This document shows, one piece after another, positions 8,628 through 41,632 of a DNA stretch of 53,197 nucleotides. Within the stretch, counting starts at the first letter, position 1, and every line of letters starts with the position of its first letter. Source of the stretch: Candidatus Woesebacteria bacterium (GTDB lineage: Bacteria > Patescibacteriota > Microgenomatia > UBA1400 > MFAQ01); contig DAOORK010000001.1 of the NCBI GenBank assembly GCA_035389185.1, forward strand, positions 576,218 to 629,414, given 5' to 3'. The notes beneath the pieces were generated by a model. That model worked only from the letters and a program-made list of their open reading frames with translations. It searched no databases and was not told the origin of the DNA. The position numbers and the translations under genes were made by a program.

Positions 8628-8655
8628 GTTTTAAGTATAACCGAAAGGTGTCTTT

Positions 8656-9309
8656 TTAGGGATTAAGAGAAGTTTTTACTTGTGCGGGATTAAAAGCAGT
8701 AGAGCCTTGGTTGTAGATGGTATAAAAAAGAGTGACAAGTTCATTGGTAGTTAGTTGTTGAGCTTTAAGACCGATACGAGCAAACTGACGGATTAGATGG
8801 TCTCGGCGAGGATAAAGAGTGGTAGCGGCTTTTTCTTCGATATAAGAAAGATCAAATGGAGGTTTTTGGGGTGATTGGGCAAAAGGGTTGAAGGTGGATT
8901 TGGAGAGACCGAGTTCGATGGTGGAAAAAGGAATAATAATATAGAACTTTTTTTCCAGAACACGATTTTCTTTAACGAGAGATTTAACGAACTGACGATA
9001 GGCGAGCAACTGTTCCTTGACCTTTTGGGAAGTAACTGATTGGATACGAGTGTCGATTAAATTAAGATAGTCAGAAATAATTTTTCTTTGTGATCGAAGA
9101 AGTATTTGTATTGGAAAAGAGAGAGAGTTGAGGAGTCCGGCGTAGGCATAAATGGTGGCATCTTGCTCTTCTTCGGAAAGAAGATTGAAGTTGATGGCTG
9201 TGGTTTTGAGGACAAGGGCGGCAGAACCATCTTTGAGGAAGACAAGATGGTCTTTTATGGCATAAATATCCAGATGTTCTTGAGTGGAGGCTTTGATGTT
9301 GTCGGTCAT
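8656..9309 (-). CDS. T4SS-associated hypothetical protein, possibly a stand-alone VirB4 N-terminal-domain-like protein
   Basis: 217 aa and soluble. The pattern IKDHLVFLKDGSAALVLKTTAINFNLLSEEEQ...LNSLSFPIQILLRS parallels the N-terminal region of the adjacent VirB4-like protein (VDFSYIKIDNNYVRTLFITGYP...HSLDISMYVYP). The similarity was judged by eye only. Confidence 0.55.
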   Translation of the reverse strand: MTDNIKASTQEHLDIYAIKDHLVFLKDGSAALVLKTTAINFNLLSEEEQDATIYAYAGLLNSLSFPIQILLRSQRKIISDYLNLIDTRIQSVTSQKVKEQLLAYRQFVKSLVKENRVLEKKFYIIIPFSTIELGLSKSTFNPFAQSPQKPPFDLSYIEEKAATTLYPRRDHLIRQFARIGLKAQQLTTNELVTLFYTIYNQGSTAFNPAQVKTSLNP

Positions 9310-9314
9310 AGGTT

Positions 9315-10163
9315 TTATTTTTGAGCTTGAATTTTGAGAGGTTTGACAATTTCTCCGGTAAGTTCGAGAGAGTAGGGAACAAATGTGAAACCTTCTTTTT
9401 CGGCGAGAATTTGATACAGACCTGATTCTAGGGGGCGCGCAAACATAAACTGTCCAAGCTTGTTACTTCTGGTTGCTCGAAGAGTAAGGTTATCCTTTTT
9501 GATTTCGACTAGGACGGTGTCAAGAATATTACCCGGTGCGGTAAGAGTGAGACCGACAAGAGTGTTGGGAGTGGTGGGTGTAAAAGGAATAGGAAGATTA
9601 ATGGTTGGTGCGCTGGCAGAAGAGATGGGGTGAGAAGTCGGTGCTGGTGTAGCAGAAGGGGTGACTGATGGAGCAGGTGCATTGGGGGTAACCTCTTGGG
9701 GAGAGGAGGGTTGGGTGATGGGCGTAGCAGGAACTGGAGCAGAAGAAGAGGCTGGCATTGGTGAAGTCTGGGGAGCCTCGGTAATCTGAATTTGAGGGTT
9801 GGAGACAGGAGAGACTGAGGTAGAACTCCCCCTTGAAGGCATAGAGGTTTCACCTGCTTGATTTTGGTCGGTAGATTTTTTCCAGGTATATTGAGTTGGA
9901 GAATAAATAGATTTGATGAAGGCGACTAACCAGATATCTAAAGAACGACCCTGAACGGGGACAAAAGCCATCCCGACGCCAAGAAGGAGAAAGAGGAAAA
10001 TGAGGGGATATTTAAAGAAAAAAGGCAGGGGAAGACTGTAGGTAATGATGGCTAAAACGATACAAATACCAAGAGAGGCGAACTGTTTAAGAGTCATATC
10101 GCCGATTAGCCGGAAACGGTAACTGGTGATGTCTTGAGGTAGCGGATGTTGTTGGATAGCCAT
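9315..10163 (-). CDS. PrgI/VirB3-like two-TM protein fused to a Pro/Ser/Thr linker and a C-terminal beta-sandwich-like domain
   Basis: The N-terminus (ITSYRFRLIGDMTLKQF, then two TM helices) matches the PrgI-family layout that precedes VirB4 in Gram-positive-type T4SS. A P/S/T-rich tract of about 90 aa follows. The C-terminus (GLYQILAEKEGFTF) resembles carboxypeptidase-regulatory-like folds. Confidence 0.65.
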   Translation of the reverse strand: MAIQQHPLPQDITSYRFRLIGDMTLKQFASLGICIVLAIITYSLPLPFFFKYPLIFLFLLLGVGMAFVPVQGRSLDIWLVAFIKSIYSPTQYTWKKSTDQNQAGETSMPSRGSSTSVSPVSNPQIQITEAPQTSPMPASSSAPVPATPITQPSSPQEVTPNAPAPSVTPSATPAPTSHPISSASAPTINLPIPFTPTTPNTLVGLTLTAPGNILDTVLVEIKKDNLTLRATRSNKLGQFMFARPLESGLYQILAEKEGFTFVPYSLELTGEIVKPLKIQAQK

Positions 10164-10252
10164 AGATCAATTTAAGTATAGCGAATTTGCGGAGAAACGG
10201 GAGATTGGTGATATAATTTGAACAGTTATAGGGCTCAATATTTATATTTAAA

Positions 10253-12628
10253 ATGGGAATTGAAGGATTTTCTCCAAAAGTTGTGTTTGACGCTGATAAA
10301 GGTTTTGGTGGTGAAAAAAATGAAGGTGTTTCAAAAAATGACAAGGTAGAGTCTTTGCATACAGTACTTGCCCCTGTATCATCAGAGATACGCAATAACG
10401 GGGAAAAGTATTTTGAGTATTTAAATAAAATTGCAGAAGAAACAAAAAAATTAAAAGATCAAGGAATAGATGTAGAAAAGTACACAAAAGTTGGTTTGCC
10501 CAGTAAAGGAGAGGAGTCAAACAAAGAGCTTGGAAAGAGAAAACGCGACTTGAGACAGTTGATAAATAAGGCGATCGATGACGAGCCTTGGAGTGAGGAA
10601 GAGAAAAAAATAGCAGAGACGATTAATTTAAGCAGAGACGATGTGGCCGGAAAAAAGGGAGAGATTGAAACTGATAAAGGTGAACCAGTCAGGTTGGGTA
10701 AACCTTGGGAGGAAGAGTTAAAAAGAATTGAGCTGATAAAAGATCCGGTGTTGCAAAATAAGATAAGAGGGTCGTGGCTGATAAAAAATACAACAAATGC
10801 AAACATACCCTTTTCAGTAATAGAAGAACAAAGCAATAAGTTGGCTACCCCTGATCAATTGAAGGGGGCGGATCGAGGAAGAAGAGAGCCTTTTGAGATA
10901 AAAACAGAGGACGATCTGAACGCCGCCTTGGGAGAAATGGACAAAATTACAGATCCTGTGGCAAAAGTAGGAAGACTGGGGAGGCTGGCAAATTATTTAT
11001 ATGATACGGGAAAATTGGATTGGGCAAATCAAGTATCAGAAGTAAAAACAAAACAGCAAGAAAAGAAGAATGTGGCAAATATCGAAGGACTGCCAAAGGA
11101 CATTTCCAGCAAAAAGGAGTGGAGAAAATGGACAAGAGCAAGGTTGGCAAGTTTGTTGGACCCCACCGTAACTGAGGTAAGAAGCCCTCGAGATGTTTTT
11201 GGAGTGGTTTCGGAAACAGCGTTTGGTAGACAGCCGATTGATGGAACAGTGTACATGCCTTCGGATCTGCGCGATGAACTGGTGTCAGGGAAAATGGGTT
11301 CTGATGGAAGAATCGAAACTACGAGTGAGCTACAAGTATCCCAGGAGATAGGTAAGCTTTATACCGATTGGCGGGAAGCCCACAAAAAATTAGGATTTAT
11401 GGTAGCGGCGATTGATGGGGGCAAGTATAGACTGCCAAGCAATGATTTAAATTCTCGATTGCTAAATAGTTTGAAGAGTGAGGATGGCCGTGATCCTGAG
11501 GGCGGTTCAAAAAAGATTGCCAAAGCGGTGCAAATTTACTGGGGGATGGCTCATTCAAAGGAAGAGGAGGGACAAAAAATTCTAGAAAATTTTGGATTGA
11601 CAGGAATAAGAAATATTTTTGATTCGCAGTTAACAACAGGAGATGTTGGTGATATCAGAGAGAAAATTGCAGATAAGGTTGGTGGAACATATTACGAAAA
11701 TATTGGTTTGATGTATGCCAGTTTCTATGGAGTATCCGCCTACGGAAGTGACAGTACTCTTCCGGGAATTGAGTATTGCGACGCAATGGGTAATCTGGTT
11801 CACTCGGAGATTAATCGCTACAAAAATGATAATGAACGAAACAACTCAACGAGAAGAGGCTATAGATATCTTGATGATATGGTGGCCAACATGTTTTATG
11901 AAGTAAAAGAAGGGAAGCATTTGGTGAAGGATGATGGTTCTCCGGTGCCGATTGAGCTAAGTGTTCACTCGGGAACCTTACAAGACCAAGCGGAGACAAA
12001 AGAACCGAGGGCTTTTTACTTATTGAGAGAGAAGGGGGCAAAGGGAAAGTTCAGGATGGTGAAGAAAATTGGTTTGGAAGGAACGGATTATGCTATTGAT
12101 ACCTCAGAGAAATTTATGCGGTTAGATACAAATAAATATGAAGAGGTTTTGTTTGAGAATTTAATTAAGGAAGGGCGAATCAATGAGATTGATTGGGCTC
12201 ACAGTCAGGATATTTCCAGAGTAATGGTTTCGAGAGAGAAGGGCGCAATCTATGTTTACAAAATGTACAAAAACTTAGACGATGACCCCGGAAAGTTAAC
12301 AGATGCGGCCTTGATTGCCCGAAGAGAGAACTTTGAAGATGCAATTCCTCAGTACAATTTGGAGACACAGCAACACGCGATGTATCTGTGGCTTCACTCT
12401 TTGATTAATAAAAATGATGACTGGCTAAAAACAAAAGAAAAGAAGGATGAGGTTATAAGAATGGTGGCATCAGCTGAGAAGCACAAGCTGGTATCGAGCT
12501 CAGATGCCAATAACCTGAGAAAAGGTTTTGGCTTGGGACTTTTGGGGTCATACGGCAAGCTGTTAGGTAATGAGTATGGAAAGGAAATTTTAAGTTCTTT
12601 TGGGGACGTGTTTAAAAATCTAAAATAA
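10253..12628 (+). CDS. Large hydrophilic hypothetical protein (791 aa); the only plus-strand gene inside the T4SS-like cluster
   Basis: A long uninterrupted ORF with normal amino-acid composition. It has no TM helix, no signal peptide and no motif I recognise. Confidence 0.7.
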   Translation: MGIEGFSPKVVFDADKGFGGEKNEGVSKNDKVESLHTVLAPVSSEIRNNGEKYFEYLNKIAEETKKLKDQGIDVEKYTKVGLPSKGEESNKELGKRKRDLRQLINKAIDDEPWSEEEKKIAETINLSRDDVAGKKGEIETDKGEPVRLGKPWEEELKRIELIKDPVLQNKIRGSWLIKNTTNANIPFSVIEEQSNKLATPDQLKGADRGRREPFEIKTEDDLNAALGEMDKITDPVAKVGRLGRLANYLYDTGKLDWANQVSEVKTKQQEKKNVANIEGLPKDISSKKEWRKWTRARLASLLDPTVTEVRSPRDVFGVVSETAFGRQPIDGTVYMPSDLRDELVSGKMGSDGRIETTSELQVSQEIGKLYTDWREAHKKLGFMVAAIDGGKYRLPSNDLNSRLLNSLKSEDGRDPEGGSKKIAKAVQIYWGMAHSKEEEGQKILENFGLTGIRNIFDSQLTTGDVGDIREKIADKVGGTYYENIGLMYASFYGVSAYGSDSTLPGIEYCDAMGNLVHSEINRYKNDNERNNSTRRGYRYLDDMVANMFYEVKEGKHLVKDDGSPVPIELSVHSGTLQDQAETKEPRAFYLLREKGAKGKFRMVKKIGLEGTDYAIDTSEKFMRLDTNKYEEVLFENLIKEGRINEIDWAHSQDISRVMVSREKGAIYVYKMYKNLDDDPGKLTDAALIARRENFEDAIPQYNLETQQHAMYLWLHSLINKNDDWLKTKEKKDEVIRMVASAEKHKLVSSSDANNLRKGFGLGLLGSYGKLLGNEYGKEILSSFGDVFKNLK

Positions 12629-12656: not shown

Positions 12657-14447
12657 TTATTTGCCGACTGGAGGCTTACCTGCTGCAGGAGTAGTACCTG
12701 AGGTTGATGAAGGTGTTCCCCAAGGTTTCCCCGCTTTTTGGTTGAAGGTTTCTGAAGCCTTCTTATACCATTCTGAACCGCCGATAGCCGGATTGACAAC
12801 ACCAGCACCGGTCCAGCCACTCTTTAGGGCATCTCCGATGGCTGTGCCATATTTAAATGGAGGAACCTTGAGAGTATCTTTGATCATGTCGACGTATTTG
12901 GGAGCCATAAGGAGTAGACCAACTCCGAGAAGAGCAAGAAGATCTCGGGCACCAAAATTACTGAGTCCTCCAGAAGGAGTGATGAGGGGAATATTGCCAA
13001 TTTTTGTACCAGTATCTGAAGTGACGAGACTACGAACGCCGAAGAACGCTTCACAACCTTCGAGAGTACCTTTGTCTTGAGTAGCTCCAAAAAGTCCGGT
13101 AACCATGTCGGTGGCGTCGGTACAGATACCAACAATTGGCTGAATCATGAACAAATAAGAAAATAAAAGCAGGATGATTGTGGCTGGAAAAACCATAACG
13201 TTGGCAAGAATGTTGCGGAACCAGTTGCCGATAACGTTTGACCCGGGAAAAGCATTGCCCAGAAGAGTCAGGGGACCGGTAATGATGGAGATAACCAAAG
13301 AAATAAAACAGCCAATGAGCTTAACAAAAAGCTTAACATAAGCGATCAAGACGGCGATCATGAGGATGATAGCGATAATAATATCGATACTGCCTGCGAA
13401 GGCAACGGTTAATACTCCGCCGATAGCAGAACTAGTTCCACCAAGAACAAGATTTAAAACACCCAAGATGGTGGCCTGAACAGAGACGAGATAGTTGATA
13501 AAAAAGGAACCGACCAGACCTACAGAGCCAAAGCCTGAAGCGGCGACTGCCGGGCGCCAGGTTGTTCCGAGAATAATCAGTTTTTGACTGGCAAGATAGT
13601 TGAGGACGAGATAGATTACGACGTACATCATGTCAAAAAGGAAGCCGGCGATGGCGTATGAAAAAGTAATAATGAGGAGAGTAACGACAAGTTTGGGGAT
13701 GGCTAGCTGAACAGAGATAACAGTTTTTTGACCGAGATTAACACGAAGCATCATCATAAAACCATAGATGATAAAGAAAATAACCATGATAAAGTAGGCG
13801 AGATTTCTGACTGCTAACCAAATAGATAGAAAAGGGGAAAAGGTGTTGAAACCAACACCACCTTCGTTGGCGGCAAGGGCGCTAGGGATAATTTTGTGTT
13901 TTTGAAGATTTTGACTGACATGAGCGAGATAAGAAGTTGAGGCGGCAGGTTGATATTTAAAGAGAGAGGCGATGAGATTGGTGGTACCCTGAAACAAACC
14001 GTTGGTAGAAGAAGAGAATAGTTTTTGGCGAGCCGTATTTAGAGCAAGATATTCGTCTTCCCCTTTGGACATAGCCTCGCTGTAATCCTTTATGGCGCTG
14101 TCGATCTGTTGGGTATAGGAAAGATCGGAGTTTTTGGCGCCACCAATTCTTTCGGCCAGGTCAAGAAGAACGATATCGGAAAAGCCAACACCATCACCAT
14201 TGGTGGAAGTAAAAGTATCGGTTGAAGTGGGACATTTTCCCGAGTACCAGGTTTCGAGATTCATCTGATTCCCTTGACGTTTTTTGCAGAATTCTTCAAG
14301 ATCTCCAGTACTGGTGCTTTTGATAGCTGTGTCGAGAGCGTTTAGGGTAGTAATTTCTTCTGCCTTAACAATACTCGCTGAAAAAAACAGGGAGAAAGCA
14401 AAAATACAGATAGCGATGATTGGGCCAAGGCGGCGTGGCATATGCAA
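12657..14447 (-). CDS. VirB6/TrbL-like polytopic membrane protein
   Basis: A signal or anchor helix is followed by an ectodomain of about 190 aa, at least 7 TM helices and a Gly/Pro/Thr-rich tail. This is the usual architecture and genomic context of VirB6/TrbL-type channel components. The assignment rests on topology and context, not on a sequence motif. Confidence 0.6.
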   Translation of the reverse strand: MHMPRRLGPIIAICIFAFSLFFSASIVKAEEITTLNALDTAIKSTSTGDLEEFCKKRQGNQMNLETWYSGKCPTSTDTFTSTNGDGVGFSDIVLLDLAERIGGAKNSDLSYTQQIDSAIKDYSEAMSKGEDEYLALNTARQKLFSSSTNGLFQGTTNLIASLFKYQPAASTSYLAHVSQNLQKHKIIPSALAANEGGVGFNTFSPFLSIWLAVRNLAYFIMVIFFIIYGFMMMLRVNLGQKTVISVQLAIPKLVVTLLIITFSYAIAGFLFDMMYVVIYLVLNYLASQKLIILGTTWRPAVAASGFGSVGLVGSFFINYLVSVQATILGVLNLVLGGTSSAIGGVLTVAFAGSIDIIIAIILMIAVLIAYVKLFVKLIGCFISLVISIITGPLTLLGNAFPGSNVIGNWFRNILANVMVFPATIILLLFSYLFMIQPIVGICTDATDMVTGLFGATQDKGTLEGCEAFFGVRSLVTSDTGTKIGNIPLITPSGGLSNFGARDLLALLGVGLLLMAPKYVDMIKDTLKVPPFKYGTAIGDALKSGWTGAGVVNPAIGGSEWYKKASETFNQKAGKPWGTPSSTSGTTPAAGKPPVGK

Positions 14448-14472: not shown

Positions 14473-14988
14473 TCAAGGCAGGAGATTAAGCGTCTTTATC
14501 CAGGTTTCGGCAACATCGCGGATGTATTGACGATGACTCAAACTAACATGGAGATCTTTGATATTGACACCGTTTTCGGTAAGAAGGGAGATGGCCTTTT
14601 GAAATGACTCTTGATAAGCGACCATGTAAGGATTGGTAGAAGGGTCATTTTGGTTGGGAATGTAGTCAATGCCATAAACTTCTATGCGGACAACATCTGG
14701 ATCATCGTTGGGGTATGAACTGATAGAAATGTCGGTATTGATGCCCACAGAGGTAGGGAAACTTTTGATGTTGATTGGAAGTTTGGGAAGAAGTGCTGTT
14801 TTGGTTTTTGTGGCGACATCACTACTTGATTGGCGAAGAATGGAAACAGTTGGGGTAGTTGTCGGAACAACAGGAATGGTTTGGGTGGTGCTGGTCTCTT
14901 TGGGTGCTGGGGTCAAGAAAGCAATAATCAGGGCGACAAAAAGTAAAAGCGCGAGAATAGTGAGAAGGATTTTAATTTTTTTGGACAT
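14473..14988 (-). CDS. Small membrane-anchored hypothetical protein (T4SS cluster)
   Basis: N-terminal TM helix (ILLTILALLLFVALIIAFL), a Thr-rich linker and a globular C-terminus. Its start directly abuts the stop of the upstream 836-aa gene. Confidence 0.6.
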   Translation of the reverse strand: MSKKIKILLTILALLLFVALIIAFLTPAPKETSTTQTIPVVPTTTPTVSILRQSSSDVATKTKTALLPKLPINIKSFPTSVGINTDISISSYPNDDPDVVRIEVYGIDYIPNQNDPSTNPYMVAYQESFQKAISLLTENGVNIKDLHVSLSHRQYIRDVAETWIKTLNLLP

Positions 14989-17499
14989 CTAGGGTAGTGA
15001 CTGATAATAGTTTAAAGCAACTGTAAAGGCCCCTGGGCGATTAAAGAGAACAGCTGAAGAACAGTCGTAGTCTTTTTGACAACGAAGATACATAGTGGAG
15101 TGTTTTTGGCCGAGTTTGTTGGTAGCATAGGGATCATCTTCGCCTATAAAAGCGGCAGGACAGTAAAGGTACTGAGGAGAGATGTCCGGGTGCAGACCCC
15201 AGTCAATACGACAGTTGGAGTTACCACCACCATTATAGTTGGAGAAGGCGGTGATAATATCTTTGAAACTAGCTCCGGTAGCGCCCTTTTGAGCAATTTC
15301 GTATCCAGCGTCGATGGCCGTTTCGAGTAGAGTGCTATAGACTTTTCCTCCATTATCAGGTTCGGGCACACCAATTTTACGACCACTAATAAGCGACCCG
15401 CAGGGATTATTGTTGGCTTCCAGAAAGTGGACTGCGGCCAGAATAACACAAGAAACCCCGGTTTGTTTTTCGGCTTCGGCATAAACTGCCGATAGCTCAG
15501 GAGTGACGAGGGGAATAAAGGGATCAAGAGTGGCACCAAAACCACCACTCAAGTAACCGTTGGCGTATTTGGTAAATGAGCCTTTTGAACAACTGCCGGT
15601 GAGAGGTTCTTCGGAAATAGTACACTCTCCAGATACTTGGGGAACAGCCCCCCCGCATTTTGAAGATGATTGTTGATCGGAAGGAACGAGCCAACAGTTC
15701 TGAAGCAGATGCATGGCGTTTTGGGCGAGATTATTTTCGCGATAGATAGGACTGTTGCCATTGCTTATAGTGGTATCCGGATCATCGGTGCTAGTTTTGC
15801 TTGAGGGTGCACTGACAGTGGTTTTTTCGACTGCTGGGGCGTAAGAAGGAGTAAAAAGACGGTAAAAGGAATCTTCACCTGGTTGGCCAGTACCGACAAT
15901 CTGTTCGTTTAGAGTGTTGATGAGAGGATTATTGAGAACAGTGATATTTTTCCCAGTGGCTTCCCCAATAAGTTTGTAGGTTGAGGTGCCTTCAACAAAA
16001 GTACAACCAAGATTGGCTCTGGCCTCACAACCAGTTTGGTCTTTACTGTAATAAAAACAGTGTCTTTTAAGACAACCTTTGGTGACACCATCGCATTCGC
16101 AACGGTCGGGAGTAGAGGAAACAAATTCACTGTTAAGAGGAATGGTAATTGATTGAGAGAGTGAAGAACCGTTGGGATATGTTTGGGGAGAAGTTTGCGA
16201 GGAAGTTTTTGATGGGACAATACAAGTGGCGAGGAGTTCTCTTGAGGAAACAGAAGAGTAGAGAGTTGATTCTGAAGAAGAGGAAATAGTGGAGTTTATT
16301 GCGGGAGACTTTATAAATGAACTGGGAGTATAGAAGCTAAATAGCCCGTAACTTCCTTGTATTGCATTAACAATGGCTCGAAGGTAGGGGATTGATTCGC
16401 TGGAAACATTTCCATTTACCGTTAGGTAACCACGACTATTGTTGAAGTCAAAAGGAAGTAGGGTGTCGTATTTGGTTTTGATTTCCTGACTGAGACTTTG
16501 ATATTTTTTAACATAATCATCACAAACCGGATACTGGCGGAGACAACTTGGAAGTTGGAAGTATAAAGTTTGGGTATCTGTTTCTTGTTGGTTATTGTTT
16601 GAGTCGAGATAATAGTAAGTCAGCTTGGTGTTGTTGGTATTGGCCGAACTAAGGTAGATTGCCTTAACATTGGCTTGTGCAAGACTACTGAGCATTCTCC
16701 AGTAGGTTCTGAAAAATTCCCGAGAGGTGTTGCTTTTTGAGTAAGAAGGTCGATCAAAAAGACCGTTGAAGAGGTAACTCTGGGCAATTTTATCGGGATT
16801 TGCTGAGCTGAGAATACTGGCACTGGGTCCGAGGAAACCAAGGGTAGCTTCGGAGAGATTTGCCGTGGCGGTGACGGTTATTTCTGAAGGAGGAGAGTCA
16901 AAAATAGTAATGGATTTTTCATAGCTGGCTTTGGGGGCAGGGATACAGGTTAGAGGGTACTGATCAATTGCTGACTCAACCTGTTTTACTTCGGCATAAC
17001 AGGAACTGTTTGGCGGGTAAACAGTGTTTTTACCGGTTGAGGAACATGGTTGGCCAGTTGATTCAATGGGGGCAAGAGTGGGGGCGGGAGTGATTGTTGA
17101 GGTGACTGAAGATGTGGTGGTTGAGTTTGTGTTTGATGTGGACGGAGAGACAAAAGTACACGAACAGGTCTGCTCGTTGGTAATGATGGATAGATTTTCT
17201 GTAATATCTTGGGGAAGACAGTAGTTATTGGTACCACAAGAATCGCCGACCTTTTTGTTTTGACATGATTGATCAGAGCTTGTTGAACAAGAGGATGCAG
17301 GTAGGGGGCATTTTTGATAGTTGGTAGTACAAACACCCCACTGATACACTTCATCTTTTTGACACACCTCTCCAGCTTTACATCCGGCATCTGTACCACA
17401 AGCATCAATCTTGACACAAACAGTGTCGGCAAAAACGTTGCCAGAAGAAACAAAAAAGAAAATAAATAAAAATAAGATAGAAAAGACGAGTTTCTTCAC
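14989..17499 (-). CDS. Large secreted Cys-rich protein (836 aa); candidate surface or adhesin component of the cluster
   Basis: Signal peptide (MKKLVFSILFLFIFFFVSSGNVFA), a Cys-rich N-terminal module, Ser/Thr-rich linkers and more Cys-rich modules at the C-terminus. No confident catalytic motif was found. Confidence 0.7.
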   Translation of the reverse strand: MKKLVFSILFLFIFFFVSSGNVFADTVCVKIDACGTDAGCKAGEVCQKDEVYQWGVCTTNYQKCPLPASSCSTSSDQSCQNKKVGDSCGTNNYCLPQDITENLSIITNEQTCSCTFVSPSTSNTNSTTTSSVTSTITPAPTLAPIESTGQPCSSTGKNTVYPPNSSCYAEVKQVESAIDQYPLTCIPAPKASYEKSITIFDSPPSEITVTATANLSEATLGFLGPSASILSSANPDKIAQSYLFNGLFDRPSYSKSNTSREFFRTYWRMLSSLAQANVKAIYLSSANTNNTKLTYYYLDSNNNQQETDTQTLYFQLPSCLRQYPVCDDYVKKYQSLSQEIKTKYDTLLPFDFNNSRGYLTVNGNVSSESIPYLRAIVNAIQGSYGLFSFYTPSSFIKSPAINSTISSSSESTLYSSVSSRELLATCIVPSKTSSQTSPQTYPNGSSLSQSITIPLNSEFVSSTPDRCECDGVTKGCLKRHCFYYSKDQTGCEARANLGCTFVEGTSTYKLIGEATGKNITVLNNPLINTLNEQIVGTGQPGEDSFYRLFTPSYAPAVEKTTVSAPSSKTSTDDPDTTISNGNSPIYRENNLAQNAMHLLQNCWLVPSDQQSSSKCGGAVPQVSGECTISEEPLTGSCSKGSFTKYANGYLSGGFGATLDPFIPLVTPELSAVYAEAEKQTGVSCVILAAVHFLEANNNPCGSLISGRKIGVPEPDNGGKVYSTLLETAIDAGYEIAQKGATGASFKDIITAFSNYNGGGNSNCRIDWGLHPDISPQYLYCPAAFIGEDDPYATNKLGQKHSTMYLRCQKDYDCSSAVLFNRPGAFTVALNYYQSLP

Positions 17500-17530: not shown

Positions 17531-17899
17531 TTAAGAGCCTGTTACGGTGAAGGTAGAAAGGTTGGCTCCTGTGAAACGCTCAATAAGGATAATAATGAGC
17601 CAAGCGGCAGAGAGGAGGATTAGACCAATAATAGCCCAGGTGAAAGTTTTCCAAGCGGCGGCGTAGGCTTTGGGGTCGGAACCGGCCATCAAGAGACGGA
17701 TACCGGCAAAAATAACCATACCAACGGCAACGACAGCAAGCAAAGCCGGGGCTGGTTTGATTAGATTACGGAAAAGACATTCGACTCCTTTGAGTGTGGC
17801 CACATTGGCTTCGACACCAAGATCGTTATAAGTGTAAACACATTCATCAGTCCAGGCAGACTCGGCAGCAAGCACTTGGGGAATGAGATTCAAAAACAT
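17531..17899 (-). CDS. VirB2/TrbC-like mini-pilin paralog 1 (divergent)
   Basis: Short leader (MFLNLIPQVLAAES). Two TM helices flank the loop LLMAGSDPKAYAAAWK, giving the same layout as paralogs 2-9. Confidence 0.7.
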   Translation of the reverse strand: MFLNLIPQVLAAESAWTDECVYTYNDLGVEANVATLKGVECLFRNLIKPAPALLAVVAVGMVIFAGIRLLMAGSDPKAYAAAWKTFTWAIIGLILLSAAWLIIILIERFTGANLSTFTVTGS

Positions 17900-17930
17900 A
17901 ATTTGATTATATATTAACCAATCAAAACTA

Positions 17931-17952
17931 AAACCCCGGTTACCCGGGGTTT
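17931..17952 (-). terminator. Hairpin terminator between pilin paralogs 2 and 1
   Basis: Perfect palindrome AAACCCCGG-TTAC-CCGGGGTTT with A/T flanks, 18 nt after the paralog 2 stop. Confidence 0.6.
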
Positions 17953-17969
17953 AGAATAATTTTTGTTAC

Positions 17970-18311
17970 TTAGTAGGGTTTGGGGATGGTGATATTACCA
18001 CCAAGGACGTCAATGCCAAAGAAGTAGGAGATAAGCTGCATTAAAGCCCATGAAGCGGCGATGATGGCTAAGCCAACAAGAGCGGCAGTAATACGGTTTC
18101 TAGCTTGTTCGGTTTTGGTTTTGTCTCCACCTGAGGTAAGCCATTCGATACCACCGATGACTAAAAAGGCGAAGGTGAGAATACCGGCAACAATAAAAGC
18201 AACGGAGATGGCACTAGAAATGAGTTTACCGATATCGGTAATTTTCATGGTTGATGGTCTTTCTACTCCGAGACTGCTAGAAGCGGCGTAGACTTGGGGA
18301 ATTAGGGACAT
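17970..18311 (-). CDS. VirB2/TrbC-like mini-pilin paralog 2
   Basis: Leader MSLIPQVYAASS. TM1, loop WLTSGGDKTKTEQARNRITAALVGLAIIAASWA, then TM2. Confidence 0.8.
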   Translation of the reverse strand: MSLIPQVYAASSSLGVERPSTMKITDIGKLISSAISVAFIVAGILTFAFLVIGGIEWLTSGGDKTKTEQARNRITAALVGLAIIAASWALMQLISYFFGIDVLGGNITIPKPY

Positions 18312-18379
18312 ATTCTTTTTTTAGTTTATTAATGACTAATTAGTTTTATTATTATGATTTTTTGGGAGCTTGTCAACTT

Positions 18380-18727
18380 CTAGACAGGATTGTCGGTGCA
18401 AATTTTGCTGATATCAATACCAAGGAACTCGAGAACGAGGGTGTAAATAGCCCAAGAAGCGGCGATGATGGCCAGGCCAATAAGAGCATTGGTGATTAAT
18501 TTTTGGGCACTTTCGAGTTTGGCTTTGTCACCTCCTGAGGTGATCCAAGTGACACCGCTAACAACAAGAAGGACAAAAACAATAATTGCGGAGAGAATAA
18601 AAACGACGTTGACAGCGTTACTGACGAGATTCCAGATGCAGGTGTATCCAAAAAAGTTATTTTTACTTACTTCGCCACCGATATCGACGACTTCGTCGGC
18701 AAAAACTGGTTTGATGAGGTTGATCAT
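18380..18727 (-). CDS. VirB2/TrbC-like mini-pilin paralog 3
   Basis: Leader MINLIKPVFADE. Loop WITSGGDKAKLESAQKLITNALIGLAIIAASWA. Confidence 0.8.
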   Translation of the reverse strand: MINLIKPVFADEVVDIGGEVSKNNFFGYTCIWNLVSNAVNVVFILSAIIVFVLLVVSGVTWITSGGDKAKLESAQKLITNALIGLAIIAASWAIYTLVLEFLGIDISKICTDNPV

Positions 18728-19065
18728 AGGTTGCTGGGAAATACGGGAGCCATAATATTAATCTTAAGAGCATTTTGAATAAATAAGGCAATGGCATAAG
18801 AGCCAATCAAGACGGCTAACCCGATAAAGGCATTGGAAATCATGCTTTGAGCTGTTTGAACACGATCTTTGTTGCCTCCGGCAGTAAGCCATTCGACGCC
18901 ACCCCAGATGAGAAAAATGATAAAAGCGAGACCGCCAACAGTGACAACTGAGCGCCAAAGAATAGCAACATAAAAGGCTAATCCTTGACCGGCACTCATT
19001 GCCTGAACGTTGGAAGGAAGAGAGGTATTTACAATTTCGTTGGCTGCGTAGACGGAGTTAATCAT
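18724..19065 (-). CDS. VirB2/TrbC-like mini-pilin paralog 4
   Basis: Leader MINSVYAANE. Loop WLTAGGNKDRVQTAQSMISNAFIGLAVLIGSYA. A 4-nt ATGA overlap with paralog 3. Confidence 0.8.
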   Translation of the reverse strand: MINSVYAANEIVNTSLPSNVQAMSAGQGLAFYVAILWRSVVTVGGLAFIIFLIWGGVEWLTAGGNKDRVQTAQSMISNAFIGLAVLIGSYAIALFIQNALKINIMAPVFPSNL

Positions 19066-19067
19066 AA

Positions 19068-19460
19068 TTATTGAACATTACCGAATAATGTTTTGAAAGG
19101 ATTAAGAATATCAATACCCAGAACACTACCAACAATACCAACAACGAAGAGACTGGCAACCACGGCTACCAAACCAATAACTCCTTGAGTCATTTGCTGT
19201 TGGGCTTCTTGGACCTTGCTTTTGTCACCGCCAGCGGTTAGCCATTTTAGACCTCCAAGAGTAAAGAAGATAACGAAAGCTAAACCACCAACGACACTAA
19301 GGGCGGTGATGACATTGGAAATAATATTGCCAAACTGGGAACCAACTGTCTGTTTGGTGATATCTGTGTTTTCAAAACCATAAGGGCCGATACCGGTTAC
19401 ATTGCCGACATCAATGTCGGCAGCATGGATGGGTTTGATAAGAGTATTGAGGAAGTTCAT
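19068..19460 (-). CDS. VirB2/TrbC-like mini-pilin paralog 5
   Basis: Leader MNFLNTLIKPIHAADI. Loop WLTAGGDKSKVQEAQQQMTQGVIGLVAVVASLF. Confidence 0.8.
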   Translation of the reverse strand: MNFLNTLIKPIHAADIDVGNVTGIGPYGFENTDITKQTVGSQFGNIISNVITALSVVGGLAFVIFFTLGGLKWLTAGGDKSKVQEAQQQMTQGVIGLVAVVASLFVVGIVGSVLGIDILNPFKTLFGNVQ

Positions 19461-19832
19461 TTATTGTACTGATTGAAATTTGGGTGATAGGATGGCCGTA
19501 AAGCTACCAAAGAGGAGTTGACTGACAATGGCGATGACGATAAAACTGGCGGCAATGACGACTAGACCTACAATGCTCATGGTGAGCCTGTTGGTGGCTT
19601 CTGAAATCTTGGCTTTTTCACCGCCAGCGGAGATATATGTGAAACCGCCACTTAAAAACTGCCAAAGAGTAAAAAGACCAGCGATGATGATAAAGGCGCG
19701 AATAATGATGCTGATGAAATTACCGGTTTGACCGACTTCAGAAGGGATTCCAGAAGGAACAGCAATAGTACCGACAACATCGTCGGCATAAACAGTTTTA
19801 ACGATGGAGTTTATGAGTTGAGTAACAATCAT
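19461..19832 (-). CDS. VirB2/TrbC-like mini-pilin paralog 6
   Basis: Leader MIVTQLINSIVKTVYADD. Loop YISAGGEKAKISEATNRLTMSIVGLVVIAASFI. It abuts paralog 5 with no gap. Confidence 0.8.
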   Translation of the reverse strand: MIVTQLINSIVKTVYADDVVGTIAVPSGIPSEVGQTGNFISIIIRAFIIIAGLFTLWQFLSGGFTYISAGGEKAKISEATNRLTMSIVGLVVIAASFIVIAIVSQLLFGSFTAILSPKFQSVQ

Positions 19833-19834
19833 AG

Positions 19835-20152
19835 TTATATAAAATTGAAGCCGAAAATGGAGCCCATTAGGCGAGTAAGAAGGAAGGCTCCTACCACGAC
19901 GACTAATCCAATTATGCCATATGTTAGCATTTGTGACGCTTGAGCTGTTTTGGCTTTGTCACCGCCGGCGGAGATGAAGGCAAAACCAGCAAAAAGGATA
20001 ACAACCAGAGCGGCAAGTCCAGAAATGATAAGAACGTTGGTGATGATGGGATTAATGAGAGTGGAAAGAGTGGCCTTTTCTCCCCCAAGAGCTGATGCGG
20101 GGGCGTATTCCTCGGAAATATTGACGGCGGCGTAAACGTTTTCGACTAGCAT
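19835..20152 (-). CDS. VirB2/TrbC-like mini-pilin paralog 7
   Basis: Leader MLVENVYAAVN. Loop FISAGGDKAKTAQASQMLTYGIIGLVVVVGAFL. Confidence 0.8.
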   Translation of the reverse strand: MLVENVYAAVNISEEYAPASALGGEKATLSTLINPIITNVLIISGLAALVVILFAGFAFISAGGDKAKTAQASQMLTYGIIGLVVVVGAFLLTRLMGSIFGFNFI

Positions 20153-20226
20153 TGATGTTATTTTACAGTAAATTCCATAGAGTGATATGGAGGAAAGTTG
20201 AGAGCATTTGGAAGAAAACGGAGACT

Positions 20227-20637
20227 ATGATGATCTTCATGGAAGTTCCAAAACACTGGAGAGAAATGCCAATAAATGCCGGATTTATGGGGGTGGATAT
20301 TAAACCGACAGTAGATAAAGACGGTAGGGTAATCGGGAAACCGAGCTTTAAATATCCAGGAGGGGAAATAGTTTTGGCTGGATCTTTTGGAGAAATATAC
20401 GAGAGATTTGTTGACAAGGGTTTTACCGCCGAAGTAATCGAGAAGATTTTATTTAATATTTATGGCGCTGTCGCCTCCGAAGCGGCGGTCTCTTTTGAGA
20501 AAATCGTCAATAGCAAGGAGGAGCTGGTCGGGAGTGAAGTCGGGGAAAAGAGTGGGGGTAAAGAAAAGCTCAGAGTAAACAGATTGCCAGGGGAGATAAC
20601 CAGAAAGACGCTGTTCTCCGCCCGTGCGAATAATTAG
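20227..20637 (+). CDS. Uncertain small ORF in the 296-nt gap between the pilin array and uppS
   Basis: The first roughly 75 codons (MMIFMEVPKHWREMPINAGFMGVDIKPTVDKDGRVIGKPSFKYPGGEIVLAGSFGEIYERFVDKGFTAEVIEK) look protein-like. The last 189 nt run antisense through the 3' end of uppS, so the true end, or the reality of the gene, is unclear. Confidence 0.25.
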   Translation: MMIFMEVPKHWREMPINAGFMGVDIKPTVDKDGRVIGKPSFKYPGGEIVLAGSFGEIYERFVDKGFTAEVIEKILFNIYGAVASEAAVSFEKIVNSKEELVGSEVGEKSGGKEKLRVNRLPGEITRKTLFSARANN

Positions 20638-21159
20638 GTCCGGATCGGGTATTTCGGCTGTATCCAAGTAAGAAGAAAAAAGATCCTCGTTTATTTGTTC
20701 GGAAGGAATTTTTTCAGAAACGATTTTTTTGACAGCTCTTAAGATTTCATCACGGCCACCGTAGTTAAGTGCAAAAGTGACAGTAATTTTGTGATTTTTG
20801 GCGGATTTGTTGACAATGTCAGCGGTTGTTTGAGCTATGTCTTTGGGAAAACGATTAACATCACCAAGAATACGAAGCCGAGCACCTTTTTTGATGAAAC
20901 GGAGAGCAAGAGATCCAAAAGCGAAACGAAAGATATTGAAGAGACCTTTTAATTCGGCCTCATCTCGTTTCCAGTTTTCGGTTGAGAAGGCCCAAAAAGT
21001 AATGTAGGGAATACCAAGCTCGCCACATTTTTCGACTAAGGGTTCAATGGCATTTTGGGCAGCGTATTCGTGGCCTTTGACAGGATCGAGATTGTGAGCT
21101 TTGGCCCAGCGGCGGTTGCCGTCCATGATGATGGCCACATGTTGAAGAGGGGGGTTCAT
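20449..21159 (-). CDS. uppS: Isoprenyl transferase / undecaprenyl-diphosphate synthase
   Basis: Cis-prenyltransferase motifs HVAIIMDGNRRWA, ITFWAFSTENWKR and IRTGGEQRLSGYLPWQ. Confidence 0.93.
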   Translation of the reverse strand: MNPPLQHVAIIMDGNRRWAKAHNLDPVKGHEYAAQNAIEPLVEKCGELGIPYITFWAFSTENWKRDEAELKGLFNIFRFAFGSLALRFIKKGARLRILGDVNRFPKDIAQTTADIVNKSAKNHKITVTFALNYGGRDEILRAVKKIVSEKIPSEQINEDLFSSYLDTAEIPDPDLIIRTGGEQRLSGYLPWQSVYSELFFTPTLFPDFTPDQLLLAIDDFLKRDRRFGGDSAINIK

Positions 21160-21182
21160 GGGTAGATTATAACAAATCGAAC

Positions 21183-21587
21183 CTAAATTAAGTTTCCAAG
21201 ACCAAGAACGTTGGTGACAAGGCGAACGATAATGAAGGCGGCGACAACCATAATGATGCCAATAATGCCATTCATTAGTCTAGTGGTTGCGGCGGAGATT
21301 TTTTTTGCATCACCGGAACTCATCATGTAGTCCCAGCCGGCCATAATAAGATTGGCAAAAAAGAAAAGACCAACAATAATAAAAATAAAGTTGATGAGAT
21401 TAAAGCCTCCTTCTGTGAGGATCTGACCGATGTTAAAAGTGTTGGGTATTTTGGTAGCGGTGGTAGTAATGGTTGAGATATCTGCACCGGCGGAATAAGA
21501 GGTGTCTCCTTCGGCAAAACAGGGTTTAACAACAAAAGCGAATTGAAGGAGAGCGGAAGTAATAACAGTTAACGATGTAAGTTTCAT
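21183..21587 (-). CDS. VirB2/TrbC-like mini-pilin paralog 8 (with a classical signal peptide)
   Basis: Signal peptide MKLTSLTVITSALLQFAFVVKPCFA. Loop YMMSSGDAKKISAATTRLMNGIIGIIMVVAAFI. Confidence 0.75.
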   Translation of the reverse strand: MKLTSLTVITSALLQFAFVVKPCFAEGDTSYSAGADISTITTTATKIPNTFNIGQILTEGGFNLINFIFIIVGLFFFANLIMAGWDYMMSSGDAKKISAATTRLMNGIIGIIMVVAAFIIVRLVTNVLGLGNLI

Positions 21588-21630
21588 TGATGAAACAATT
21601 TTAACACGGTACTTTGGGGTCGATGAATGA

Positions 21631-22437
21631 CTAATTTAACCCCGGAATACCGAGAATATTTATGCCGATAAGATTGACGATGAAGATAGAGAGAATAATA
21701 AATATTAGTCCGACAACGGCGGAAGTAATAATTTCACTGCCAGCCTTGAGCTTGTCTGGGCTACCGGCTGAAGTAGTGACGATGAAGACTCCATAAAGGA
21801 TTAAGGCGAGAGCAATACCGCCTCCTATTCCGGTGGCAATACGAAGGATGTTGGTAATGAAACTTTGGGGTGAGCTGACATTGATACAACCAAGGGCGGT
21901 ATTAATGCTTTTGTCATCGGCACAAAGAACACTTGTTTTTGATTTTTCAAGATAGACAGTTGGGGCATGGCTGGGTGTACTTAAATCGACACAAGTTCCT
22001 GGCGAAAAAGGCTGATTCATTTGATCAATACAGTGTAAGGAACTGTTGTTGCATGTATACAAAACATTAATAGTGTCACCACCTACATATACAGAAGGAG
22101 AACAACAGTCTTGATTTAGGTTTCCACAAGTTGAGCTGGTTGGAATGGGGGTAGAAGTGATTGTTGTGGTGATTGTTGGTGTTGTGTTGGTGTTAGAAAC
22201 ACAGATTGATCCACTACAGATTTCGTCGGCTGAACAGTTTGTTGGTAGCGATGGGTAACCTCCTGGAGCAGTATAAAATGAATTACACGCATTATATAAA
22301 GCTTCGTATTTATATCCTAGATCATTGCCATCGGTGTCGTATTGAGGGGTGCAACAAACTTGACCTACAGCATAGGAATTTGATGAGAAAAGGAAGAATG
22401 AGGAAATAAATAAAATAGTAATAAACAGATGTTTCAT
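21631..22437 (-). CDS. Secreted Cys-rich protein with a C-terminal mini-pilin module (paralog 9)
   Basis: A signal peptide is followed by about 170 aa of Cys- and Thr-rich ectodomain. The C-terminus has TM1, the loop TTSAGSPDKLKAGSEIITSAVVGLIFIILSIF and TM2, homologous to the whole of paralogs 1-8. Confidence 0.75.
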   Translation of the reverse strand: MKHLFITILFISSFFLFSSNSYAVGQVCCTPQYDTDGNDLGYKYEALYNACNSFYTAPGGYPSLPTNCSADEICSGSICVSNTNTTPTITTTITSTPIPTSSTCGNLNQDCCSPSVYVGGDTINVLYTCNNSSLHCIDQMNQPFSPGTCVDLSTPSHAPTVYLEKSKTSVLCADDKSINTALGCINVSSPQSFITNILRIATGIGGGIALALILYGVFIVTTSAGSPDKLKAGSEIITSAVVGLIFIILSIFIVNLIGINILGIPGLN

Positions 22438-28240: not shown

Positions 28241-28681
28241 TTAATTTTTTGTTTGAGCGGGTGGATTGATTTTTGGTTTATCGGAGTGAAGAAGACCCTC
28301 AATTTCATTTGTGGGGACTTCGTAAAGACCACCCAAAATACTATAATTTTTAGCGATAGTAATATTGCAGGGCGGAATAGCAAATTGGGTTTGAACTTCG
28401 ACTAATATCTCGATGATTATCTGTTCAAAGAATGCTTGAAAATCCTGCCACTTAAGTAAGTCGCCGGTAATAATAAGTCGGGCATATCCGTCGTAATTTT
28501 CTTTGTCTGGTTGAAAATTGAGATGATAATCACGAAATTTTGGCTCGATTTTTTCAACCATAACCTTAACGATTTCTGGGCTGAAGGAAGAAAAAATATC
28601 GAGGGCAAGGCGAGGGTTATCTGAAGTTAATCCCCAGTAATCAATAAGAACGTGAATAATGTTATGGTAGTTGTATTCCAT
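28241..28681 (-). CDS. Hypothetical protein
   Basis: The ORF is trimmed to the internal ATG (MEYNYHNIIH...). No motif recognised. Confidence 0.55.
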   Translation of the reverse strand: MEYNYHNIIHVLIDYWGLTSDNPRLALDIFSSFSPEIVKVMVEKIEPKFRDYHLNFQPDKENYDGYARLIITGDLLKWQDFQAFFEQIIIEILVEVQTQFAIPPCNITIAKNYSILGGLYEVPTNEIEGLLHSDKPKINPPAQTKN

Positions 28682-28749
28682 GAACACTCCTTTTGAATGT
28701 GCTGGGAAGATATTAACACTTATAGGACAAAATATCAACTAGAAGGATC

Positions 28750-31053: not shown

Positions 31054-31422
31054 TTACCAAACAAAGACGCGATTCATGTGACCGTGGAAGGAAAGATCTT
31101 CAAGGGAAAACATGTCACCCTTTCGGATCGAGATGGCCTTTTGTTCTTCTTCCATCCACTGTTGATGGTCAATGAGGTCCTCTTCGGTCATTTTTTGGGC
31201 CTCTTCATCTGAAAGAGGAGGAAAGTCTGTCCAGGGAACGAAGGCATAATGATCAACGATTGGGGACTGAGGGTTGAATTGATCGTTAGCCAGTTTTTGG
31301 GTCTTGAGGACATAGATATCGTCAAGGGCATCCGTTTGTAGATCTTCCTTTTCGACAATAACGTACTTGTCGGGTGAAGGTCCAAATGAAACGACATCGC
31401 CAACAACAGGAACATTGTCCAT
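31054..31422 (-). CDS. Hypothetical protein (122 aa); probable distant paralog of 31544..31999
   Basis: The two share an N-terminal GDV motif (VVGDVVSFG vs GVGDVITSK) and a C-terminal xSxxGHMxxxF motif. Confidence 0.55.
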   Translation of the reverse strand: MDNVPVVGDVVSFGPSPDKYVIVEKEDLQTDALDDIYVLKTQKLANDQFNPQSPIVDHYAFVPWTDFPPLSDEEAQKMTEEDLIDHQQWMEEEQKAISIRKGDMFSLEDLSFHGHMNRVFVW

Positions 31423-31543: not shown

Positions 31544-31999
31544 CTATTTGAAGTACATTTCCATGTGGCCAACAAGAGAAATTTCACTAGAGGTGATCAA
31601 TGGGTCAGTGTCTCCAGTCATAAAGAAAACAATGATCTCTCCTTTGGGGTCCCAGAGGCCGTTTTTGTCGAGACGTTTGGCAGTGACAAGCCACCCCGGT
31701 GAGTAACCTTGATCAACATTGCCACCTGCCATTTCAGCATCGATGACAACAAATTTGTCAAAGGCACGAGATGGATCGGGGACACCGATGTCGATGTTCT
31801 TCATTCTTCCCGGAGGTATTTTGCCGGTTTTAAGTACTTCGGCGACTATATCATCTTCAGTAAGTGGAATGGAAATGATGTAACTGGGAGATTCCAGGCC
31901 AACGTAAATATGGTTTGTGTTTGTGAAGCCTCGGTGACCATAGATAAACCTTTTTGAGGTGATAACGTCACCAACACCAAGTAATCCGTCATGAGACAT
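31544..31999 (-). CDS. Hypothetical protein (151 aa)
   Basis: An ORF with its own terminator. No recognised domain. Confidence 0.55.
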   Translation of the reverse strand: MSHDGLLGVGDVITSKRFIYGHRGFTNTNHIYVGLESPSYIISIPLTEDDIVAEVLKTGKIPPGRMKNIDIGVPDPSRAFDKFVVIDAEMAGGNVDQGYSPGWLVTAKRLDKNGLWDPKGEIIVFFMTGDTDPLITSSEISLVGHMEMYFK

Positions 32000-41626: not shown

Positions 41627-41632
41627 TAGTTA

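Follow-up and report, generated by a model that had tools for sequence, protein, structure and literature searches.

A 53,197-nt stretch of a Candidatus Woesebacteria genome (contig DAOORK010000001.1, positions 576,218 to 629,414; hereafter the window) carries nine genes for small pilin-like proteins. These genes are the VirB2-like (T4SS_pilin) array of a chromosomal, origin-proximal, monoderm-type type IV secretion system (T4SS) in a Ca. Collierbacteria-like (Microgenomatia) Patescibacterium. The nine positions are one-to-one orthogroups under purifying selection, and the very short leaders of seven of the products are, by alignment, homologous to the c-region of classical Sec signal peptides. 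We assign a probability of about 0.68 to the reading that the products are inserted by their first transmembrane segment (TM1), clipped by signal peptidase I and assembled into a pilus-like structure in which one of them, c2, is the major subunit.

Nine T4SS_pilin paralogs

All nine genes (c1 to c9; positions are in window numbering) lie on the minus strand, and all nine products match Pfam PF18895 (T4SS_pilin), with E values from 4e-12 to 1.6e-4. Seven genes are in tandem, beginning with c7 (19835-20152, 105 aa, E = 5.5e-9), which has an 8-aa leader, MLVENVYA/AVN (the slash marks the junction). It is followed by c6 (19461-19832, 123 aa, 22.1 bits; 16-aa leader MIVTQLINSIVKTVYA/DDV), c5 (19068-19460, 130 aa, E = 3.3e-11; 13-aa leader MNFLNTLIKPIHA/ADI), c4 (18724-19065, 113 aa, 25.4 bits; 7-aa leader MINSVYA/ANE), c3 (18380-18727, 115 aa, E = 1.9e-6; 10-aa leader MINLIKPVFA/DEV), c2 (17970-18311, 113 aa, E = 3.6e-8; 9-aa leader MSLIPQVYA/ASS) and c1 (17531-17899, 122 aa, E = 4.4e-12; 11-aa leader MFLNLIPQVLA/AES). 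From c7 to c1 the intergenic gaps are 2, 0, 2, -4, 68 and 70 nt. The other two copies are c8 (21183-21587, 134 aa, E = 1.7e-6), with the classical signal peptide MKLTSLTVITSALLQFAFVVKPCFA/EGD, and c9 (21631-22437, 268 aa), in which PF18895 matches residues 188-257 (E = 2.7e-7). The c9 product starts with a classical signal peptide, continues with a Cys-rich ectodomain (about 170 aa) that has a Thr-rich linker, and ends in the pilin hairpin.

Seven of the nine score above the PF18895 gathering cut-off of 26.6 bits (28.3-46.3 bits). For the two below it, c4 and c6, PF18895 is the best and sole credible match, and both are recovered by a hidden Markov model (HMM) built from the paralogs; an HMM built from all nine retrieves exactly those nine among all window open reading frames (ORFs) of at least 60 aa. 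Homologues of c2 number 369, and all 120 among the matches listed carry PF18895. Besides PF18895, c7 has a weak match to CagC (PF16943, E = 0.0099), and NCBIfam returned sub-threshold matches only, to a Mycoplasma integrative and conjugative element ‘pilin-like conjugal transfer protein’. TrbC/VirB2 (PF04956) is matched by 6 of 29 c2 orthologues (best E = 3.1e-6) and by none of the nine window copies at E <= 0.1. The AlphaFold2 model of c2, built with 29 orthologues, contains a helical hairpin (H24-59 and H64-98) with per-residue confidence (pLDDT) of about 88-91 there, a mean of 73.8 and disordered tails.

The original prediction, made from the DNA alone, had described nine paralogous two-helix ORFs, seven of them tandem with gaps from -4 to +70 nt, and had called them mini-pilins. 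Its coordinates and gaps are exact, and the name is borne out by the T4SS_pilin family matches, by the PF04956 matches of c2 orthologues and by the position of the genes inside a VirB4/PrgI T4SS cluster. The loop motif that it gave for all nine occurs in none as written (0/9), because it misplaces (V/I)-G-(L/I) by one residue; once this is mended and the motif relaxed, it fits c2 to c7 only, with WLTSGGDKTKTE as the loop of c2. The loops of the other three are diverged yet homologous (AGSDPK in c1, SSGDAKK in c8 and SAGSPDK in c9). Identity of the paralogs to c1 is 16-26%, mean column identity is 24%, and besides the start Met a single Gly (of IGL) is invariant in all nine. A hydropathy scan found two transmembrane-like segments in most copies. 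Holins had been named beforehand as a family that would speak against pilins; no holin profile of Pfam or NCBIfam matches at E <= 0.1, and the context is a T4SS cluster rather than a phage lysis module.

Conserved cysteines were seen in two of the copies and were compared with two related loci, L001 (9636-9947 and 10451-10834) and L002 (9596-9931 and 10530-10832). In the N-tail of c1, two conserved Cys (C20 and C41) are spaced by about 20 residues. In c3, C30 lies just before TM1 (..GYTCI..) and C110 just after the second segment (..KICTDNP..); both are predicted to be outside, and the pair is also present in L001 and L002. A disulfide between them would clamp the hairpin's two ends together and might be a counterpart of the head-to-tail cyclisation seen in VirB2/TrbC.

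Leaders and the putative processing junction

The very short leaders of the seven tandem copies are real at the DNA level: the upstream in-frame sequence has stops or no ATG, GTG or TTG, and so offers no start codon before a stop. A basic n-region and an h-region (at least 7-10 residues) are absent from c1 to c7. In c8 and c9, n-, h- and c-regions are present by inspection, in agreement with the classical signal peptides first assigned to them. The original prediction took these to be two different leader types, which the alignments contradict. Short leaders align with the c-region of the full Sec signal peptides of their own orthologues and have the same -3/-1 pattern, which points to one leader type present at different lengths.

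For example, c2 orthologues form a series from MSLIPQVYA/A (9 aa) in the closest, through MKNKLISALSLIPVTYA/A (17 aa) in farther ones, to classical signal peptides such as MKKLAALTSAALGLLAQATPAFA/Q in the farthest, with Ala at -1 invariant in the 29-sequence alignment. Leaders of c1 orthologues range from absent (MAVWT) to a full MVKISAFLLSLVLVFFSFLSLAKPAHA/A; c3 orthologues are leaderless (MNVDIQSQV) or have leaders of up to 10-13 aa, and leaderless c4 orthologues begin with MNEIVNN or MDEIVNN at the junction. All three states are found in c6, as MIVTQLINSIVKTVYA/DD in the window, the full signal peptide MKKIKISLITTLAYLVSLKPVFA/Q in L001 and the leaderless MSS-IIGT in L002. At c8, leaders are 9-10 aa long in most relatives and 9 aa in the nearest ones, but the window copy has a full signal peptide. 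Mini-leaders of the form M-x-x-L-L-A/Q also occur in arrays labelled Woesebacteria and Beckwithbacteria.

A census of 405 orthologues at >=40% identity, in which the longest possible ORF was used so that lengths are upper bounds, comprised 223 short leaders without an h-region, 76 full leaders, 53 absent and 53 unclear. Leader length is orthogroup-specific (11 aa in c1, 9 in c2, 10-12 in c3, 10-13 in c5, 14-15 in c6, 8 in c7 and 9 in c8). At position -1, Ala accounts for 94% of short leaders (n = 223; Ser 4%, Gly 1%) and 98% of full ones (n = 76). At -3, Ala (38%) and Val (36%) make up 74% of short leaders, and Ala, Val or Ser 90% of full ones. Position -2 is Y/L/A/H/F in short and F/L/Y/H in full leaders; -4 is Q/P/T/S in short leaders and most frequently P in full ones; -5 is K/P/S and most frequently T/S/K, respectively; and -7 and -6 are L/I/F and I/V in short leaders and most frequently S/F/L and A/S/V in full ones. 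The -3/-1 pattern of signal peptidase I is thus present in both classes.

These data bear on the proposal that the junction is a dedicated maturation site. It is probably a real maturation point, because Ala at -1 is near-invariant and leaderless orthologues begin within 0-4 residues of it (MNEIVNN versus MINSVYA/ANEIVN; MAVWT versus ...QVLA/AESAWT), start points that independently mark the junction as a functional N-terminus. Its dedication finds no such support: judged from residue patterns, the junction looks like an ordinary signal-peptidase-I-type site, generic rather than dedicated, and its -3/-1 pattern matches that of classical leaders encoded in these loci. It therefore seems highly improbable that the junction is cut by a dedicated pilin maturase, such as a TraF-like peptidase of the S26 family which would read the short leader as a recognition tag and also join the ends of its substrate head to tail, as in RP4 TrbC, T-pilin and TrhA. 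Several VirB2-family pilins are indeed cyclised after leader removal, the C-terminus of c2 (IPKPY) is strongly conserved, and the conserved Cys residues in the N-tail and C-tail of c3 could tie the ends together. The site is nevertheless indistinguishable from the Sec c-region of c8, c9 and the orthologues, the window ORFs scanned include no S26 or TraF-like gene, and leaderless orthologues would have an N-terminal Met.

The short peptides might instead be uncleaved remnants or the product of start-codon drift, with TM1 inserting, Met-x(n)-VYA-A staying in the mature N-tail and the motif kept by recent ancestry or a structural role. This would suit the 53 orthologues that have no leader and are still under selection in conserved arrays, the leader of 7-16 aa without an h-region, and a short low-confidence helix that AlphaFold2 places at c2 residues 6-11. 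We consider it quite unlikely, since Ala is kept at -1 in 94% of 223 sequences, whose eight orthogroups separated earlier than the sampled genomes did, variation is free at position -2 and beyond +1 as in the classical -3/-1 pattern, leaderless orthologues start right at the junction and not at random, and leader length is group-specific and conserved.

A full signal peptide is kept by c9 in 27 of 31 orthologues, compared with 15 of 292 for c1 and c3 to c8. This comparison replaced one of N-tail length with signal-peptide presence across 617 pilin ORFs, which was confounded by over-extended ORFs and locus edges. Per-column conservation of leader versus N-tail was uninformative in several groups, whose tails were truncated, and only the near-invariance of Ala at -1 is used here. 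Several other export signals were considered and rejected. The class III signal of type IV pilins (G/F or M-x-x-x-E) occurs in none of the nine, which have a hydrophilic tail of about 15-40 aa after the junction instead of a helix; the ..VVKPCFA of c8 is not a lipobox; and inspection of the copies revealed no LPXTG sortase signal.

A fixed nine-member set with a candidate major pilin

The window was compared with 82 related loci, 2 obtained by exact-protein look-up (L001 and L002) and 80 from named GTDB genomes; with the window, these contain 617 pilin ORFs, mostly 7-9 per locus. The order c9-c8-(uppS)-c7-c6-c5-c4-c3-c2-c1 is found in 12 of 12 fully syntenic genomes examined. In a maximum-likelihood tree of 108 hairpins, eight of the nine positions are single clades (ultrafast bootstrap 82-100) and c3 is paraphyletic around c2, with which it groups (support 100/97). 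Support for the other orthogroups is 100/99 for c1, which has a long stem, 100/96 for c4, 100/95 for c5, 99/90 for c6, 82/51 for c7, 97/97 for c8 and 100/99 for c9. Position labels require 8 changes on the tree, the minimum possible, versus 78.5 in shuffles. The paralogs are homologous and their positions are ancient orthogroups; the clade structure and the order of positions indicate that the duplications are older than these genomes.

Ratios of non-synonymous to synonymous substitution rates (dN/dS) between paralogs, the comparison first suggested, are meaningless at about 24% identity and were set aside in favour of orthologue pairs. All nine copies have dN/dS of 0.08-0.27 when compared with the three nearest genomes, ratios that are rough at dS of 1-3. 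Near-identical strains from two other metagenomes yielded 33 placed single-nucleotide polymorphisms (SNPs); 28 lie in pilin genes, of which 25 are synonymous and 3 are not, and neither indels nor rearrangements were seen. The nine positions are under purifying selection as one-to-one orthogroups. One-to-one orthology, conserved order, low dN/dS and mostly synonymous SNPs favour fixed, specialised, non-interchangeable subunits over a variable filament, so that of the ‘heteropolymeric or variable’ filament originally proposed, the heteropolymeric half is retained and the variable half is not. A role in antigenic or host-range variation, through differential use of the paralogs or their rapid diversification, has been put forward for VirB2 copies in Bartonella and Anaplasma and was suggested for these arrays (PMC12102498), and the low paralog identity (~24%) would agree with it. 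We give it next to no credence, given that orthology is one-to-one with conserved order across genomes, dN/dS is well below 1, strain SNPs are 25 synonymous to 3 non-synonymous without indels or rearrangements, and the tree shows the divergence of the paralogs to be ancient, not recent.

Among the nine, c2 is the most conserved orthogroup, with a mean pairwise identity of 72% versus 44-61% for the others, and has the lowest dN. Of all promoter-like sites in the region, the best match, TTGACA-17-AATAAT (11/12; 18348-18376, minus strand), is in the 68-nt spacer between c3 and c2. An AT-rich spacer with a -10-like box lies upstream of c2 in 14 of 14 loci printed, with TTGACA visible in six; in total, such sites are no more numerous in the region than in shuffles. 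Directly after c2 is the region’s strongest intrinsic-terminator-like hairpin (17931-17952, minus strand; 9 pairs, 6 GC, T-run), and a hairpin with a T-run follows c2 in most relatives, with differing stem sequences. Downstream of this terminator-like hairpin, c1 has a promoter-like TATAAT of its own. Transcripts of c2 are represented in two activated-sludge metatranscriptomes, where it alone within positions 1-22600 has 100%-identical contigs (17990-18306 and 17984-18149); in the rest of the 42.5 kb tested, only the transfer-messenger RNA (tmRNA) and four small-ORF regions appear as contigs. An RNA origin of these contigs is argued from their restriction to a few loci and from a tmRNA depth of >1000. 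Its conservation, its own conserved promoter-like and terminator-like sequences and its RNA contigs make c2 the candidate major pilin.

We propose the following pathway. TM1 alone would insert the hairpin and translocate the N-tail without a Sec signal peptide, leaving the N-tail and C-tail outside and the Lys-rich GGDKxK loop in the cytoplasm, as the positive-inside rule predicts. With only ~15-40 aa and an acidic or neutral charge, the N-tail may need nothing more than TM1, and this would make the signal peptide evolutionarily labile, with n- and h-regions that are dispensable and have been lost repeatedly. The remnant would be the c-region, consisting of two hydrophobic residues, K/P/S, Q/P/T, A/V at -3, Y/F/H/L at -2 and Ala at -1. 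It would most likely be clipped by ordinary signal peptidase I between ...V-Y-A and A, D or Q to give a defined mature N-terminus, and selection would retain the peptidase site while any leader remains. By contrast, c9 would need and keep a full Sec signal peptide because its ~170-aa ectodomain must be exported. Mature pilins may then form a membrane pool from which a VirB4/VirB3/VirB6-like machine would build a pilus-like or stalk-like structure, with c2 as the putative abundant major subunit, the other eight as fixed, non-interchangeable minor subunits and c9 as a candidate adhesive tip.

The fixed, ancient and non-redundant nature of the set would also be expected if the hairpins occupied nine fixed positions in one complex, as membrane-embedded or wall-spanning parts of a T4SS channel or stalk, or of a T4SS-independent envelope scaffold. 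Monoderm T4SSs generally lack pili (PMC12102498), and no filament is reported in the literature consulted. This alternative is unlikely in our view, as c2 appears much more expressed than the rest, as expected of the major subunit of a polymer, the family is homologous to the pilus-forming VirB2/TrbC, and the large ectodomain of c9 suits a distal position.

Several points weigh against insertion by TM1, clipping by signal peptidase I and pilus-like assembly around c2. A leader of 7-16 residues is too short to span the membrane, and the usual substrates of signal peptidase I are signal peptides anchored in the membrane; the enzyme cleaves short peptides only inefficiently in vitro. No signal peptidase gene was found within the window, among the ORFs scanned. 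The natural occurrence of leaderless orthologues implies that processing is not essential for the family and that short leaders could be tolerated remnants, and the full signal peptide of the window c8, set against the short leaders of its nearest relatives, implies that leader length changes both ways. Signal-peptide and transmembrane assignments were made by simple hydropathy rules and, for the signal peptides of c8 and c9, by inspection. Assembled RNA contigs measure expression poorly and could include DNA. A Foldseek search of the PDB with the c2 model found nothing at E <= 0.001 (best E = 1.2), and the archaeal conjugation pilus of A. pernix (8dfu) ranked 8th without significance (E = 3.1, probability 0.60, TM-score 0.53/0.68); so simple a fold as a helical hairpin does not allow a significant match. 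Searching PDB sequences with a profile likewise gave nothing. Finally, no pilus or filament is reported for any Patescibacteria pilin in the literature consulted.

Genomic setting, published arrays and significance

The array belongs to a cluster that begins near dnaA and dnaN (184-2994), at the start of the window, and whose gene order is the same in L001 and L002. All genes of the cluster listed here are on the minus strand unless stated. In coordinate order, it encodes a bitopic 357-aa protein (2991-4064), an M23 peptidase with three transmembrane segments (4102-6777), a VirB4-like ATPase matching P-loop_TraG, AAA_10 and CagE_TrbE_VirB (6783-8627), a 217-aa protein whose orthologues match the TraC-like PF26593 (8656-9309), a PrgI/VirB3-like protein (9315-10163), a soluble 791-aa protein on the plus strand (10253-12628), a polytopic VirB6-like candidate with a signal peptide and six transmembrane segments (12657-14447), a bitopic 171-aa protein (14473-14988) and a secreted Cys-rich 836-aa protein (14989-17499) that directly precedes the pilin genes; peptidase, ATPase and PrgI assignments are from Pfam, and membrane topologies from a transmembrane scan. 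The VirB4 gene is 8.9 kb from c1, and a SpoIID gene is next after the pilin genes. No relaxase, coupling-protein or VirB5 family was matched among the window ORFs scanned. For the 836-aa protein, an SLT_3 assignment was rejected, as it is a faint label on an orthologue that Pfam does not confirm in the window copy at E <= 1. Homologues are labelled Ca. Collierbacteria, Microgenomates or Patescibacteria, and the sequence is present in activated-sludge, wastewater and bioreactor metagenomes.

The array is split into seven and two genes by uppS, encoding undecaprenyl-diphosphate synthase (20449-21159, minus strand; PF01255, E = 5e-73), which also lies between c8 and c7 in L001 (6116-8176) and L002 (7293-7991). 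In L001, a polyprenyl synthase gene (PF00348) lies there as well. In the distant relative DBS2-1.bin48 (L040), a 984-aa ORF at 7673-10627 is a homologue of the secreted Cys-rich protein (..NGGGNSNC.. region) and ends in a pilin hairpin (HMM match at residues 910-977), so the large secreted protein and the pilin module can be fused.

Other features of the window lie farther from the array. A 167-aa ORF among tRNA genes (32423-32926) has a sub-threshold match to VirB3 (PF05101; E = 0.0015, 19.2 bits versus a gathering cut-off of 23.9) that may be a chance hydrophobic match. The regions 28241-28738, 31054-31422, 31544-31999 and 41208-41629 have 100%-identical metatranscriptome contigs in both X6 and X15 and contain ORFs of 165, 122, 151 and ~131-136 aa without a Pfam match. 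One X15 contig joins the 3′ part of tRNA-Ser(GCU) (34090) to the start of tRNA-Asn (42147) with 25 other letters between, and probably derives from another organism or strain in which these tRNA genes are adjacent. At 42 kb, where GC skew falls to about zero, the gene for a large serine recombinase (42175-43806) and that for tRNA-Asn (42141-42216) overlap at the end of the latter. Beyond them lie genes for an AAA/TOPRIM nuclease of the OLD family (47774-49654), for a DNA methyltransferase (49963-51783) and for a protein with a TnsA-like endonuclease domain (51759-53141). The segment 42141-53197 looks like an integrated element or defence island.

The array is of an already published kind, and nothing essential differs. 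From a survey of 3,035 genomes with PF18895 and PF04956, Quinonero-Coronel et al. (2025; PMC12102498) described arrays of 2-11 pilin genes, tandem or split by one non-pilin gene, with a mean identity of 25%, that are especially common in Microgenomatia and Saccharimonadia and often near dnaA/dnaN; a 2025 review (PMC12857230) restates this description. The window array likewise consists of 7 + 2 genes split by one non-pilin gene, with virB4 near and low paralog identity, and its PrgI, VirB4, M23 peptidase and proximity to dnaA, with no relaxase or coupling-protein match in the window ORFs scanned, are those of an MPF_FATA-like chromosomal T4SS. It therefore shares with the Patescibacteria VirB2-like arrays the PF18895 family, the tandem or one-gene-split layout, ~25% identity, the virB4, prgI and virB6-like genes, the origin-proximal position and, within the ORFs scanned, the lack of relaxase and coupling-protein matches. 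A 2024 perspective (PMC11665869) called the function of the T4SS and pilin array completely unknown, and the term ‘signal peptide’ has no occurrence in PMC12102498 or in Wang et al. (2023; PMC10633639); neither these two papers nor the 2025 review deals with signal peptides or leaders. The modest additions made here are the series from full through shortened to absent leaders, the one-to-one orthology of nine positions and the singling out of c2, points that PMC12102498 and PMC10633639 leave undiscussed.

Canonical VirB2, TrbC and TraA resemble the window proteins in being small two-helix hairpins with a basic loop and termini predicted outside, held in a membrane pool for a VirB4-containing machine. 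They differ in having Sec leaders of ~36-51 aa, one major pilin with VirB5, and frequent cyclisation or bound phospholipid in the extracellular pilus, whereas the window array has 7-16-aa leaders in seven copies, nine paralogs and a monoderm host. Type IV pili and type II secretion systems offer an analogy in their minor pilins or pseudopilins, where an abundant major subunit and conserved, non-interchangeable minor paralogs are encoded together, one of them with an extra domain; fold, leader and peptidase differ (class III signal G/F-x-x-x-E, PilD), and that motif is absent from the nine N-termini. Filamentous-phage coats provide a functional analogy. The M13 procoat, with a leader, and the leaderless Pf3 coat are small membrane proteins whose short acidic N-tails can be translocated with or without a cleavable signal peptide, any leader being taken off by signal peptidase I; these coat proteins are single-helix, and their fold and assembly machine are unrelated to those of the pilins here. 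To our knowledge, a mini-leader intermediate state is undescribed for them.

A bolder reading is that the 7-16-residue leaders are functional, undescribed mini-propeptides (signal-peptidase-I c-regions without n- and h-regions), carried across by TM1 of a hairpin with its N-terminus outside and clipped there, so that every pilin would have a defined N-terminus. They would serve a fixed T4SS appendage of nine subunits, in which c2 is the major one, the other eight are specialised minor ones and c9 forms an adhesive tip, organised like the minor-pilin sets of type IV pili and type II secretion systems rather than like any characterised conjugative pilus. We hold this as possible though doubtful.

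The predicted pilin series in the T4SS cluster of Ca. Southlakia epibionticum ML1 is essential, and the T4SS with its pilin array is required for epibiotic growth in the sole Patescibacterium tested genetically (Wang et al. 2023; PMC10633639). Within such arrays, c2 is pointed out here as the likely bulk subunit to study, and the probable mature N-termini would be useful for antibody and peptide design, structure modelling and heterologous expression. The leader series amounts to a natural experiment, suggesting that small hairpins with an outside N-terminus can dispense with a Sec signal peptide and yet tend to keep its peptidase site.

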